Below are positions 17,113 to 58,160 of a stretch of 64,000 nucleotides of DNA, piece after piece. Under the pieces are notes generated by a model, which saw only the letters and a list, made by a program, of their open reading frames with translations, was not told where the DNA came from and did no database searches. Both the position numbers and the translations under genes were made by a program. The DNA lies in assembly GCA_964016885.1 (NCBI GenBank), contig OZ024749.1:51646001-51710000 (forward strand). Reading direction: 5' to 3'. Position 1 is the first letter of the stretch. Each line of letters opens with the position of its first letter. Origin of the DNA: Eledone cirrhosa. Taxonomy: Eukaryota.

Positions 17113-17303
17113 GAAAAAGTATGACCCCGACGGCAGAGCTCAAGCCGTTTCGACGGCTATTTCAGTCCAGAAATAGCCGTCGAAACGGCTTGAGCTCTGC
17201 CGTCGGGGTCATACTTTTTCCTATCTACCACTCTACTACCCTAAGTATTGAGTACTCTGGTGCGTTATGGTCCATCTGGTTCCTTACCACAATTCCTTTG
17301 TTA
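17113..17303 (+). mobile_element. Family A HHR fold-back insert (arms 17113-17163 / 17170-17220, loop agtcca)
   Basis: Perfect 51-bp arms with copy-specific variants mirrored in both. Same tail as 15147-15227. Confidence 0.85.
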
Positions 17304-17417
17304 TATATATATATATATATATATATATATATATATATATATAAATATATATATATATATATATATATATATATATATATATATATATATATATATATAT
17401 ATATATATATATATATA

Positions 17418-19110
17418 CCCGGTCCGAACACATTGTAACCAAATTCCCAGTGTCACTGCCTCTGTCACTCCTGCTTTTGATATCTCTTACTATAAACGGA
17501 TGGGGATGCTACGCGTTGGCCGGTCCGCATCCCTGGCGGACAGAATAGAGAAGGCGTTTCCCTGGAGGATGGTGAGAGAGACCTGTTGGAAGAGCCATTC
17601 TAGCTTGCGGGGTTCACTCCTGCGGGTAGCCAACTCTGTAGGGAGGTGGTCCTAGGGCCAAGGACACCAGAAGTCTCCACAGCTACAGGTAGCCAACTCT
17701 GTGCCGATGGTGGTGAGTAGGAAGGTGGTCCTAGGACCAAGGACACCAGAAGTCTCCACAGCTACAGGTAGCCAACTCTGTGCCGATGGTAGTGAGTAGG
17801 AAGGTGGTCCTAGGGCCAAGGACACCAGAAGTCTCCACAGCTACAGGTAGCCAACTCTGTGCCGATGGTGGTGAGTAGGGAGGTGGTCCTAGGGCCAAGG
17901 ACACCAGAAGTCTCCACAGCTACAGGTAGCCAACTCTGTGCCGATGGTGGTGAGTAGGGAGGTGGTCCTAGGGCCAAGGACACCAGAAGTCTCCACAGCT
18001 ACAGGTAGCCAACTCTGTGCCGATGGTAGTGAGTAGGAAGGTGGTCCTAGGACCAAGGACACCAGAAGTCTCCACAGCTACAGGTAGCCAACTCTGTGCC
18101 GATGGTGGTGAGTAGGAAGGTGGTCCTAGGGCCAAGGACACCAGAAGTCTCCACAGCTACAGGTAGCCAACTCTGTGCCGATGGTAGTGAGTAGGAAGGT
18201 GGTCCTAGGGCCAAGGACACCAGAAGTCTCCACAGCTACAGGTAGCCAACTCTGTGCCGATGGTGGTGAGTAGGGAGGTGGTCCTAGGGCCAAGGACACC
18301 AGAAGTCTCCACAGCTACAGGTAGCCAACTCTGTGCCGATGGTAGTGAGTAGGAAGGTGGTCCTAGGACCAAGGACACCAGAAGTCTCCACAGCTACAGG
18401 TAGCCAACTCTGTGCCGATGGTGGTGAGTAGGAAGGTGGTCCTAGGGCCAAGGACACCAGAAGTCTCCACAGCTACAGGTAGCCAACTCTGTGCCGATGG
18501 TAGTGAGTAGGAAGGTGGTCCTAGGGCCAAGGACACCAGAAGTCTCCACAGCTACAGGTAGCCAACTCTGTGCCGATGGTGGTGAGTAGGAAGGTGGTCC
18601 TAGGACCAAGGACACCAGAAGTCTCCACAGCTACAGGTAGCCAACTCTGTGCCGATGGTGGTGAGTAGGAAGGTGGTCCTAGGACCAAGGACACCAGAAG
18701 TCTCCACAGCTACAGGTAGCCAACTCTGTGCCGATGGTAGTGAGTAGGAAGGTGGTCCTAGGGCCAAGGACACCAGAAGTCTCCACAGCTACAGGTAGCC
18801 AACTCTGTGCCGATGGTGGTGAGTAGGAAGGTGGTCCTAGGGCCAAGGACACCAGAAGTCTCCACAGCTACAGGTAGCCAACTCTGTACCGATGGTGGTG
18901 AGTAGGAAGGTGGTCCTAGGGCCAAGGACACCAGAAGTCTCCACAGCTACAGGTAGCCAACTCTGTACCGATGGTGGTGAGTAGGAAGGTGGTCCTAGGG
19001 CCAAGGACACCAGAAGTCTCCACAGCTATGAGCTCAACCACAAATCTGTCAGAGAGTGACAGATATTTGGAGAGTGTGGAGAGTTTACTCTCTAGACTAT
19101 AAAAGCAACA
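17418..19110 (-). mobile_element. CRE-like (RLE-type) non-LTR retrotransposon 3' remnant with an internal 79-bp tandem amplification
   Basis: Minus translation ESKL..KY.SLSDRF...[54 protein letters not shown] resembles CRE-clade RLE C-termini. The 3' end abuts (TA)n. Confidence 0.75.
17640..19028. repeat. 79-bp GC-rich minisatellite, about 17.5 units
   Basis: ggacaccagaagtctccacagctac recurs at 17662, 17741 and onward with period 79. Confidence 0.97.
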
Positions 19111-19989
19111 GCAATAACAACAACACTGCTCAAGTCTACAAACTAGTGTGACGTGAGGGGGGGGGGGACTAGTTACACACACCACTGAAACGACAATATC
19201 TTTTCAAGGCTGATCTTGCTGCAAGATGTGAATGGAATTTTGTATGTTGTGTCTTGTTTGTAGTTTGTATTTTTTTAACAATGATATCTTTTAACTTTAT
19301 ATCTTTCTAGTAGTTCATGCTAATATTGTCCTCCTACCTACCACCTGCCTTACACCACCACCTGCCACCTCATCTCCCCAACACCACCTCCCCAACACCA
19401 CCACCATCTCTTCTCACGTACCGACTCCCACCTACTTACTTCATATCTCATCTCCTTCCTTCTCTCTCTCTACCTCACTACATTCCCTCTCTCGTTCTCT
19501 CTACCTCACTCTCTCCCAACCACACTCTCTCTCTCTTTCTTTTCTCTCTAATTTACTACATTCTCTCTCTACCTCTCATCTATCTCTCCTTCACCTCCTC
19601 TCTCCCCTACCCCTCTCTCTACCCCTCTCCCCTACCCCTCTCTCTACCCCTCTCCCCTCCCACCTGACGTCTAATTATGACAATTTCACAATGTTGATAT
19701 TTAATGAATCCGGAATTAAACAAACAGTAAAAGAAACGAAAACAAAACAGAAAAACAGAAAAACAGAAAAATAAATAAATAAATAAATAAAAAACAAAAC
19801 AAAAAAAAACAAAAAAAGAAAAGAAAGGAAAGAAAACACGAATCGAACTAAAAAAAAACAAGCAAACAAAAATAAAGCAAAGTAAAAAAAAAATGGAAGA
19901 CAAGACGACGAAGAAGGAGAAGAAGAAGAAGAAGAAGAAGAAGAAGAAGAAGAAGAAGAAGAATGTGTTGTTTGTACACATCTATACGT

Positions 19990-55635: not shown

Positions 55636-55962
55636 GCTTAGGGCTTCAGCAGTTGAATTTCCGACACTGCTAGGACAGAGGATTTCTATAATGTGTTTCA
55701 AATGAGACCACATAGTAAACATTATCCTCAAACCTTTTAACACAGAGCAGCTTACCATTGGAACAGTTTACGGTTTCCATCTACACATTAACTGGCAACC
55801 ATCCAAATGAAACATTTGTCGCATAACTGTCTCAGCAAGGCGTTCCTATATTTCAGGGAAGAAGAGGATGATATTGTTAGGTCTCTCTTCTTCGGACTTT
55901 ATATATATGTGAGTGTATATATATATATATATATATATGTGAGTGTATATATATATATATAT

Positions 55963-56388
55963 CTAAGGCGGGTAAAATTCCCGAGATCCATGGACGAGTT
56001 CTCTCCAGCGGTCTCTGTCCCTCATTATCGCTGCCATGTCCTGCATCTCCAACAGACCAGTGTCTGTCCTTAGGGCATCAACATACGTTAACCTTGGTCT
56101 TCCTCTTCTAGTGTGTCCATGTAGGGGCTCCCAAAGGAGTACTGAATGCAATGTCAACTCTGGATGTCGGTGAGCATGTCCAGCTAACCTCAGTCTCCTC
56201 TGTGTCACTTTTGAGCTGACTTTTGGGAGGCTCCCATACAGCTCTGAGTTTTTCATCCTCAGTGTATACTGATTAATGTTCAGAGCCATCGTCAGCCTTC
56301 TCGTGTACCACCCATCCACCATCTGAGTGAGTTTCTTGGTCAATGTCCAAGTATCAGACCCGTAGAGCAGCACAAACTCCACTACAGC
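55963..56388 (-). mobile_element. 5'-truncated RTE/RTE-X-like LINE 3' end within TA repeats
   Basis: AVVEFVLLYGSDTWTLTKKL...RRLRLAGHAHRHPE...RGRPRLTYVD...REFYPP* in an open frame. Confidence 0.9.
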
Positions 56389-57970
56389 ATATATATATGT
56401 GTGTGTGTGTGTGTGTGTGTGTGTGTGTGTGTGTGTGTGTGTGTGTGTGTGTGTGTGTGTGTGTGTGTGTGTGATGTCTTTATCTGTGTATTTGTAGCTG
56501 TGGAAGTTTTTCCGCACACTGAGAATTTAATATGTACTTAACTCCATCTCTTTATCAATGCGTATTCCTGTATACAAGGAGGCATACAGAGATAGGGATA
56601 TATATATATATATATATATATATATATATATATATATATATATATATATATATATATAGTTATGTAAGTAGGTAGTTAGATAGATAGGGAAAATAGATAG
56701 TTAGATATATGTGTGTGTGTGGGTGTGTGTGTGTGTGTAGGTAAGTAGGTATGTAGATAGATGGATACCTAGGTAGAGGGAAAAGAGAGAAAGAGAAATA
56801 TATATATATACGAAGAGAGTAACCAAACAAAAGGAAGAGATGAACAGGAGAGAAAGAATGTCAGACTCTATAAAAGAAGTGAATCAAAAGAACCGAATAA
56901 TAATAGATTGAGAGAGTATGATAAAACTCGCAACTGACAGAAATTTAGTTTCTAAACTAACAAGTATGCTTTCAGAAAAAGGACAAATTTATCAAAATGG
57001 CATTCACTTACATATGTTGTAAAAATGCATCAAATTTACCATAAGAGAACTTTTAAGACTGGACATTTAAACAAGATCTTGCCATTTGAATAAAATAAAA
57101 AAAATTCTTCTCTAAAAAAAAATGGCTTTGAAAACTTGAAAGACTTCAATGATTGTAAATAAAAGTATTCTACGTAAACAGAAGAGGTAAATGTTCGTGA
57201 AACATGGAGGGGAAAAAATTACGTTTATTTTGCTATCAGTATTGGAAGTTGTTTCTTGGGATAGCATTTCATGTACATATGTTCACTTTTTATGTCTCTA
57301 TTTGTAAAACAAACACTCACACACACACAGACACTCACACTCGCATGCACACATACACAGATACACACACTCCGTACACACACATACACAGACACGCTCG
57401 CACACACACACATACACTCGCACACAGACACACACTCGCACACACACATACATACATACATACACATACATACACACAGACACATATTATACACATACAT
57501 ACACACACAGACACACAGACATACACATACATACATACACATACACATACATACATATACACGCGCGCACACACATATACACACATATACTCACACATAA
57601 ACCAAGTGTAAAAACCACGACCACCAACAACAACAACGATATACAATCCTCTACACAACCAGAAATACAGTTACATTATCCAGAATGTTCTATTTAAACA
57701 ATTCTGTGACGTTTCTATTTATTTTATATTTCAACCAAAATATATCAATATTTAACGATACATATTTTGAAAATAATCTTCGTAAACATTTCTTTAAATA
57801 TCGAATGTAGAAATGATAGGACAGTGAAAATATCGGATTAATCCAAATTAGAAAAATATTCTGCTAGAAACTATAATTTGCAGTTTTGGAAAGAGTTTAT
57901 ATATATATATATATATATATATATATGCTTTTATATATATATATATATATATATATATATATATATATAT

Positions 57971-58160
57971 ATAGGAACCAGTAGGACCCCGACAGCTGAG
58001 CTCAAGCCGTTTCGACGGCTAATTCTGAATTAGCCGTCGAAACGGCTTGAGCTCAGCTGTCGGGGTCCTACTGGTTCCTATTACCCACTCTACTACCTCA
58101 AGTATTGAGTACTTTGGTGCGTTATGGTCCACCTGGTTCCTTACCACATTTCCTTCGTTA
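57971..58160 (+). mobile_element. Family A HHR fold-back insert (perfect arms 57971-58025 / 58027-58081, 1-nt loop)
   Basis: Mirrored private variants ggaaccagt/actggttcc and gacagctg/cagctgtc. Confidence 0.87.

Follow-up and report, generated by a model that had tools for sequence, protein, structure and literature searches.

The 64,000-nt stretch of DNA analysed here, referred to as the window (Eledone cirrhosa assembly GCA_964016885.1, contig OZ024749.1, forward-strand positions 51,646,001-51,710,000; all coordinates are relative to the window), contains short hairpins whose two arms carry the same sequence variants, raising the question of how both arms of one locus came to match. The first-pass annotation had proposed that the direct arm of each hairpin served as template for its inverted arm, at insertion or by later conversion within the hairpin, and that arm mismatches could serve as an insertion clock.

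At least five hairpin families (A to E) were found in the window (Table 1), the four hairpins of family A (15020, 17113, 50333 and 57971) being separate from family B (13982 and 30988). The layout in the five families is (TA)n, inverted arm, junction, direct arm, tail and (TA)n. Each family has two fixed ends, namely the tail end and the arm end, the latter being the site, here named site 2, at which the pseudo-LTR (pLTR) piece ends and which adjoins (TA)n in copy 17113. Junctions vary, and solo pieces of either kind occur, terminating at site 2 (29297, 51531 and 58244-59044) or at the tail end (59061). Loose read ends running into (TA)n were found at position 50448 (3331 in X6 and 2814 in X7) and also at ~50522.

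Table 1. Positions and structure of the hairpins and related pieces in the window.
Feature	Positions	Strand	Details
Family A, copy 17113, inverted arm (pLTR piece ending at site 2)	17113..17163	-	
Family A, copy 17113, remainder	17164..17301	+	6-nt loop, direct arm 17170-17224, 77-nt tail 17225-17301, then (TA)n
Family A, copy 57971	57971..58158	+	inverted arm 57971-58025, 1-nt centre, direct arm 58027-58081, tail to 58158
Family A, copy 50333	50333..50525	+	inverted arm 50333-50387, loop, direct arm 50394-50448, tail to 50525
Family A, copy 15020	15020..15223	+	direct arm 15086-15146, tail to 15223; inverted arm ~7 nt longer 5'
Family A, putative mini insertion	15334..15355	+	22-nt remnant between (TA)n tracts
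Subfamily A2, asymmetric insertion	50176..50326	-	tail and ~11 nt of direct arm (50176-50266) joined to ~60-nt inverted arm
Subfamily A2, solo arm	29297..29357	+	ends at site 2; no tail, no hairpin
Subfamily A2, solo arm	51531..51586	-	ends at site 2; no tail
Family B, copy 13982, hairpin and tail	13982..14171	-	6/56 arm mismatches; decayed hammerhead core in arms
Family B, copy 30988, hairpin and tail	30989..31151	+	0/43 arm mismatches; 4 mirrored differences from other B copies
Family B, solo direct arm and tail	59061..59182	+	no inverted arm
Family C	16461..16923	-	180-bp arms, 0 mismatches, 7-nt loop, 96-nt tail
Family D, asymmetric hairpin	29953..30325	-	inverted arm ~105 nt longer 5' than direct arm
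Family D, partial tandem, 656-bp unit	58244..59044	+	5'-truncated repeat, tail running into interior, second repeat ending at site 2
Family E	30367..30692	+	130-bp arms, 1 mismatch, 64-nt tail

The smallest piece, 15334-15355, is composed of ~17 nt of inverted-arm start, including gtatga, joined through two shared C letters to the last ~10 nt of a tail. On its sequence we read it as a putative family A mini insertion, all nine window matches to its 17-mer at up to 4 mismatches being family A arms or the piece itself. A 22-nt family A pattern had no matches in metagenome contigs or in viral contigs.

The mirrored motifs reported by the annotation were found in both arms, being ggcAgagct/agctcTgcc, gtatga/tcatac and ctatttc/gaaatag in copy 17113, and ggaacCagt/actGgttcc and gacAgctg/cagcTgtc in copy 57971. 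With the arm type of 50333-left and 15020-right as the reference for family A, all five sites at which 17113 differs, and both of those in 57971, sit in both arms; two mirrored differences from the 58-kb copy were also found in the family D hairpin at 29953-30325. The mismatch counts likewise held, with 0/51 in 17113, 0/55 in 57971, 1/61 in 15020 and 1/55 in 50333, besides those of 13982 and 30988 in Table 1; copy 13982 is the older of the family B hairpins. Fold z-scores of the six hairpins ranged from -17 to -24, and equally good folds were obtained in 0/200 shuffles.

What failed was the description of these variants as private to one copy. As shares of sequencing depth in contig run X1 (17,611 whole-genome contigs), which are not copy numbers, the letters of 17113 account for 29%, 9%, 7.4%, 31% and 4.5% (108-120 contigs each) and those of 57971 for 25% (78 contigs) and 2.3% (59 contigs); each letter is carried by 59-120 contigs, and gtatga also by the 15334 remnant. 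The mirrored variants mark source lineages common to many copies, not single copies, and variants that look private from one window are usually subfamily alleles. The sole letter demonstrated to be rare, T at 50412 in the direct arm of copy 50333 (G represents 98.3% of X1 depth at this position), is an unmirrored one.

With depth shares taken as rough allele frequencies, the chance that independently drawn arms match has an upper bound of ~2e-4. These results support that both arms of a locus go back to one source or source lineage, most likely at insertion. The pairing of arms by locus expected in a phylogeny was partly recovered among 11 window arms, since those of 17113 paired (90/82) and those of 57971 were identical, but the 15020 and 50333 arms intermixed; re-pairing of the four loci gave p = 2/24, a floor set by n = 4.

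The hairpins have the layout of Penelope-like retroelements (PLEs), with an inverted pLTR, a direct pLTR and a 3' tail; for these elements an inverted 5'-truncated copy, a one-sided tail and a (TA)n bias have been described (PMC8557442; PMC3846280). As in EN+ PLEs, families A to E show a head-to-head inverted 5'-truncated copy at the 5' end, and the tail lies at one end only in all hairpins. In family D the tail runs on into the interior (58244-59044), which shows it to be the beginning of the unit that follows in the tandem. Only this family has a partial tandem forming a pseudo-LTR, in which two direct copies of a 145-bp repeat lie 656 bp apart and are 99.3% identical. Insertion in microsatellites, (TA)n in several clades, is another EN+ PLE feature, and all 15 listed pieces have a TA tract next to them on one or both sides. 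Within such (TA)n flanks a target-site duplication would leave no readable trace. The repeats of EN+ PLEs also contain type I or minimal hammerheads, and both arms carry a complete motif in family C (minimal; 16826 + and 16654 -) and in family E (type I; 30541 + and 30454 -), unlike Naiads, which lack canonical hammerheads. The hammerhead descriptor gave five matches in the window versus 0.02 per shuffle, and the C and E arms account for four of the five; family A retains the 3' half only, as judged by eye, and no match was found in family D in this descriptor search. Rfam gave no matches at gathering score, and an E-value scan of 13900-17400 gave 122 matches, mostly miRNA models on TA tracts or hairpins, none of them reaching gathering score and none a hammerhead.

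The pieces differ from EN+ PLEs in the length of their tails (64-99 nt, versus 30-40 bp published) and in that no ORF was seen and most are <500 bp. The three plus-strand frames of the family D interior gave no relevant Pfam match for a PLE RT or GIY-YIG ORF, and one of its six frames, compared with 1.84 billion proteins, gave 0 matches; since the copies are truncated, the missing RT/GIY-YIG ORF is expected. The hairpins are probably 5'-truncated PLE insertions in (TA)n, and RT probably copied both arms of a hairpin from one source in the same insertion event, beginning at two fixed sites.

In such an insertion the PLE enzyme would nick both target strands. One nick would prime cDNA from the tail end, giving the direct arm and tail, and the other would prime cDNA from the arm end, giving the inverted arm; the cDNA 3' ends would then be joined, in many cases where the sequence is self-complementary, as it is in family A at a short natural stem-loop. 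The arms would be identical at the start, save for RT errors, and drift later, so that mismatches would be mostly post-insertion mutations. Evidence on this scheme came from a list of joints that is a selected sample (15 of 19); none in the sample is symmetric, though symmetric hairpins exist, and RAD reads end at AATT beside the junction. Among the joints listed, 11 of the 13 on opposite strands read as head-to-head. Two opposite-strand joints, 50448-50525 and 50450-50501, were not counted as junctions, since they seem to connect the arm end of one insertion with the tail end of its neighbour. In all 11 head-to-head joints the tail is borne by the later-starting piece, which begins inside the tail in six. 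A short inverted arm was found in none of these 11, a marginal result (p ~0.05 under a rough null), and 2-5 nt of shared letters were found at only four. Within the window, the asymmetric cases 50176, 29953 and 15334 support priming at two sites. Counting against it are the eight near-symmetric window hairpins, with arms that stop within ~7 nt of each other, which self-priming by fold-back explains at least as simply.

Many inverted arms extend further 5' than their direct partners. A later one-sided deletion could imitate such asymmetry.

In fold-back self-priming, cDNA primed from the tail end would fold at a short palindrome and copy itself to site 2, where an endonuclease would resolve it; this is equivalent to the templating at insertion from the own direct arm proposed by the annotation. 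It would account for the mirroring perfectly, and it agrees with the short palindromes at the near-symmetric junctions of families A, B, C and E and with the AT-rich site 2 letters of all families, which fit the 5'-ATT-3' cut preference reported in PMC11167929. Self-priming has also been proposed for rotifer PLEs from junction palindromes (PMC3846280). However, the direct arm lacks part of the inverted-arm sequence at 50176-50326, 29953-30325, 15334-15355 and the 11 joints listed, so it could not have been the template there, and tail-less solos ending at site 2 (29297 and 51531) could not be produced in this way either. Of the annotation's proposal, the common source per locus therefore stands, but not the templating from the direct arm where the inverted arm has extra sequence. 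We consider fold-back unlikely as the general explanation, though the symmetric hairpins may arise in this way even if the others are products of dual priming. Improbable is the transcription and whole retrotransposition of existing hairpins, with mirrored variants inherited from palindromic masters. The annotation had named subfamilies of such a master as a refutation of its reading; the variants do define widespread lineages, and 17113 and 50333 share a junction, but the four A hairpins have three junction types, the two B hairpins have two, and 11 further junctions were found. Monomeric solos, the direct tandem at 58244-59044 and the asymmetric joints also argue against a palindromic master, and the junction in common corresponds to a stem-loop that the sense sequence already contains and that the inverted arm of 15020 shows in reverse. 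A palindromic non-autonomous element (a MITE-like hairpin master) is not supported, as a fixed centre and symmetric ends were not found, the junctions being variable, the tail one-sided and solos present.

Mirroring cannot separate one RNA molecule from two RNAs of the single subfamily then active. Two RNAs, with each subunit of a dimeric enzyme carrying its own, for example, would give matching arms if a single subfamily was dominant in the RNA pool; the anole PLE protein is predicted to form a dimer (PMC11167929), and the mirrored variants are all at subfamily level. Nevertheless, none of the seven hairpins with family mates (four A, two B and one D, a small sample) is clearly chimeric, although several lineages of similar youth coexist, making this explanation quite improbable. 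Later gene conversion or template switching between arms, spreading new mutations across the hairpin, is very improbable: the C>T letter of 57971 at 50425, a CpG site, could be a recurrent mutation later mirrored (2.3%, versus 0.7-2.3% at other CpG sites), but the remaining six mirrored letters are at 4.5-31%, the rare 50412 letter is unmirrored and 13982 retains 6/56 mismatches. The annotation's conversion option thus finds little support. Perfect palindromes are a known class of assembly and library artefact, arising as fold-back chimeras; such an origin is nonetheless negligibly probable here, given that each family has its own fixed ends, that tails are one-sided and that the arms of some copies contain mismatches, and given the recurrence of opposite-strand joints in the contig run and in two RAD runs from other samples.

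LTR pairs are identical when inserted and then diverge, which allows insertions to be dated. The hairpin arms, as two copies identical at insertion and drifting later, could be used likewise, and the proposed arm clock is sound in principle, but it lacks resolution per locus: the 95% intervals for arm divergence, 0-7.2% (0/51) and 0-10.1% (1/55), overlap, and since 0/51 is compatible with up to 7% divergence, a single locus has almost no dating value. Unlike LTR pairs, the arms are only 43-180 bp long, may have independent RT errors from the start and form unstable palindromes, so that only pooled use is suitable; pooled over hundreds of copies, the clock could date PLE bursts without a consensus. 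A search by title and beginning of abstract, with subscription journals mostly uncovered, found no report of PLE arm pairs as a clock or of mirrored variants.

The hairpin structure is already known, and the mechanistic evidence is modestly new. The origin of PLE tandem and inverted structures was described as an open question (PMC8557442). For PAc, a Poseidon element of the green anole, the purified protein cuts and extends both strands in vitro, and RT starts at two sites bracketing the tail (PMC11167929); AT-rich targets and an uncleaved RNA template are further likenesses, the arms here spanning the predicted hammerhead cut site. The parts of that work drawn on leave the later insertion steps unvalidated and inverted-copy formation unexplained, and the genomic junctions reported here suggest that both sites fire in one insertion. 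We consider it plausible, short of probable, that a single template is copied from both start sites during one insertion, from opposite target strands, and that a conserved RCTC-loop-GAGY stem, just inside the tail in five dissimilar families, is the enzyme recognition site. Given the many thousands of copies with lineage-marking variants, the linkage of arm haplotypes would discriminate one from two templates and provide a pooled PLE clock. In an abundant family with such variants and two fixed ends, the question of PLE structure can be tested by counts of concordant arm haplotypes, of junction positions and of asymmetric cases.

In L1 twin priming, too, two primers on opposite target strands yield an inverted 5' piece. 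The L1 pieces derive from separate portions of the RNA, whereas those in the window overlap and so form a hairpin, with a second start site that does not vary. L1 twin priming is the subject of PMC2837659 and PMC2912911. One supplementary file of PMC8557442 contains none of five short motifs taken from families A to D, though these families may be present in existing catalogues. Non-LTR retrozymes (PMC7229834; bioRxiv 10.64898/2026.07.22.740005) are also short non-coding hammerhead repeats related to PLE pLTRs, but they form tandem arrays with a hammerhead per unit, whereas the pieces here are dispersed hairpins or solos. No tandem with a complete type I hammerhead per unit was found in the window, and the family D tandem has no hammerhead match. 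The window pieces may be monomer derivatives of retrozyme arrays located elsewhere.

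The hairpins of all five families (A to E) share one layout: an inverted arm, a junction, a direct arm and a tail of 64-99 nt, in that order, with (TA)n at both ends. This matches the published anatomy of Penelope-like elements (PLEs), in which a 5'-truncated inverted copy, a tail on one side, partial tandems and a (TA)n bias are known (PMC8557442, PMC3846280, PMC8969392); the one-sided tail recurs here, and family D includes a partial tandem. The hairpin structure is already known; the tails exceed the 30-40 bp described for PLEs. In the interior of family D, a protein-domain search of three plus-strand frames and a search of one frame against 1.84 billion proteins found no PLE ORF. 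Retrozymes (PMC7229834; bioRxiv 10.64898/2026.07.22.740005) are related but are defined by tandem arrays, which were not seen here. Hammerheads are known from the pseudo-LTRs of PLEs, including opposite-strand pairs 100-700 bp apart (PMC4209133). A hammerhead descriptor search of the window gave five matches, where shuffles averaged 0.02: one in each arm of C and of E, and one in a solo piece at 50580. By eye, family A has only the 3' half, the core in B is decayed, and D lacks the motif.

Positions of probable PLE hairpins, tail stem examples and other pieces in the window
Feature	Position	Remark
Family C hairpin	16461-16923	
Family D hairpin	29953-30325	
Family E hairpin	30367-30692	
Family D partial tandem	58244-59044	tail continues into next 656-bp unit
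Tail stem motif, example	50454-50477	
Tail stem motif, example	30632-30652	
Solo piece	50577-50672	complete minimal hammerhead motif, TA tracts either side; probably a sixth PLE family
Tail-like piece	6364-6470	TA tracts either side, family A/B tail motif
Degenerate hairpin	31376-31487	arms 76% identical, (TA)n at end; may be an older example of such an insertion
Stacked elements	50176-50525, 15020-15355, 57971-59182	each stack shares its TA tracts; fits repeated (TA)n targeting

The motifs quoted in the first-pass annotation were all found in place, and its observation that variants are mirrored in both arms was confirmed. Compared in element sense with the type common to 50333-left and 15020-right (copies are named by start position), 17113 differs at five arm sites and 57971 at two, all of them in both arms. 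Mirroring extends beyond family A (15020, 17113, 50333, 57971), with four sites in 30988, which forms the separate family B with 13982, and two in the family D hairpin. The reported arm mismatches were reproduced (17113 0/51, 57971 0/55, 30988 0/43, 15020 1/61, 50333 1/55, 13982 6/56), and 6/6 hairpins folded far more stably than shuffles (z -17 to -24). Pairing of arms by locus held in part: in an 11-arm tree the 17113 arms pair and those of 57971 are identical, but those of 15020 and 50333 intermix, since both are of one type. An arm re-pairing test gave p = 2/24.

Contrary to the first-pass annotation, the variants are not private to single copies. Four sequencing runs were aligned, with an 80% likeness threshold, to the monomer of family A (50381-50525); 40 of 155 variant rows are listed. 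In the contig run of organism A, 17,611 contigs match, and letters of both copies are common. Those of 17113 take 29% (50397), 9% (50422), 7.4% (50435), 31% (50440) and 4.5% (50441) of depth, a share that is not copy number, with 108-120 contigs for each arm letter; its tail letter at 50450 takes 7.3%. Those of 57971 take 25% (50440) and 2.3% (50425), the latter being the sole ambiguous letter because it lies at a CpG site and its share falls within the range of other CpG sites (0.7-2.3%). Of the unmirrored T letters of 50333 and 15020, the one in 50333 is among the variant rows listed, and it is the rare letter, at a site where G makes up 98.3% of depth. All 17113 and 57971 letters also occur at 87-218 read start positions in two RAD runs, which come from other samples; letter shares there are skewed by reads ending at AATT. 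Within the window, gtatga recurs in a 22-nt remnant at 15334. In the organism B run only 317 contigs match the monomer, 304 of them less than 95% alike, and depth lies mostly in the tail. Expansion of family A looks limited to the lineage of organism A.

Exactly two ends of family A run into (TA)n, the arm end at 50448 and the tail end at about 50522. Each also occurs alone, in solos without tail at 29297 and 51531 and in a family B solo with tail at 59061. Three junction types were found in the four A hairpins and two in the two B hairpins. Among the 15 of 19 joints listed, 13 link opposite strands and 11 were read as head-to-head, a count that leaves out two joints linking arm end to tail end. 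In all 11 the tail is carried by the later-starting piece, which begins inside the tail in six, no more than 7 nt from the arm end in four and at 50425 in one. The same arm asymmetry is seen in the window at 50176, 29953 (105 nt) and 15334.

The proposal that each inverted arm was templated from its own direct arm fails in these three copies and in the 11 listed joints, where the direct arm lacks the sequence in question; two cDNAs are therefore favoured over copying from the direct arm. A PLE protein is reported to cut each target strand and extend it, starting reverse transcription at two sites that lie on either side of the tail (PMC11167929). We lean towards the arms being two cDNAs: priming at both sites, on opposite strands and from one source, would yield two molecules that would then be joined by their 3' ends. 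Mirrored subfamily alleles do not prove that the source was a single RNA molecule. A fold-back, as proposed in PMC3846280, would be a simple explanation for the eight near-symmetric hairpins of the window, but could not copy an inverted arm from a direct arm without its sequence; dual priming and fold-back may both operate. The joints form a selected list with no symmetric ones among those listed, the asymmetry (a short inverted arm in 0 of 11) is only marginal, with p about 0.05, and could be mimicked by a deletion after insertion. Letters are shared at the joint in only 4/11 head-to-head joints listed.

Arm mismatches, put forward as an insertion clock, could count time if the arms were identical at the start, but the per-locus 95% intervals overlap widely (0-7.2% for 0/51, 0-10.1% for 1/55). 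Only 13982 (3.9-23%) stands apart, and solely against the 180-bp arms of family C (0-2%). The other eight hairpins, pooled, are young, since 4/659 arm sites differ (0.6%). Independent reverse-transcription errors and palindrome instability could bias the clock, and conversion between arms looks to have a minor role here. Literature searches, judged on titles and opening lines of abstracts in a library with few subscription journals, listed no paper on mirrored variants in PLE arms or on dating PLEs by their arm pairs.

All 12 tails examined, from five families, contain RCTC, then 11-28 nt, then GAGY, with the motif beginning no more than 12 nt from the arm end; the background is 320 of 20,000 windows. 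The pairing is ACTC/GAGT in A, B and C and GCTC/GAGC in D and E, with G-C in place of A-U in the latter two; minimum-energy folds contain the stem in 8/12 tails. Because the motif was defined after inspection and tail starts were placed by eye, this stem is only a candidate PLE enzyme recognition site.

The surrounding DNA is animal, AT-rich and rich in microsatellites, with SINEs that look cephalopod-like. Young minisatellite arrays (97-98% matches) lie at 397-1255 (131-bp x 6.6) and 17638-19028 (79-bp x 17.6). A seemingly intact L1/Tx1-type LINE occupies 36900-42580 (+), with its 3' end at about 43063; it has long stop-free frames of 741 and 1195 aa, of which the second, 1195-aa frame carries endonuclease, RT and zf-RVT domains. 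A (TTC)n/(ATT)n tract lies upstream of the LINE, and its 3' end is duplicated, with (ATT)18 after each copy. At 20992-21101, a 37-bp perfect inverted repeat has (TA)18 at its centre, the reverse of the PLE arrangement, and adjoins a (TATC)n-flanked repeat end with a second occurrence at 23216-23348. Two 309-bp repeat fragments (16133-16441 and 55963-56271) are 98% identical, both abutted by (TA)n.
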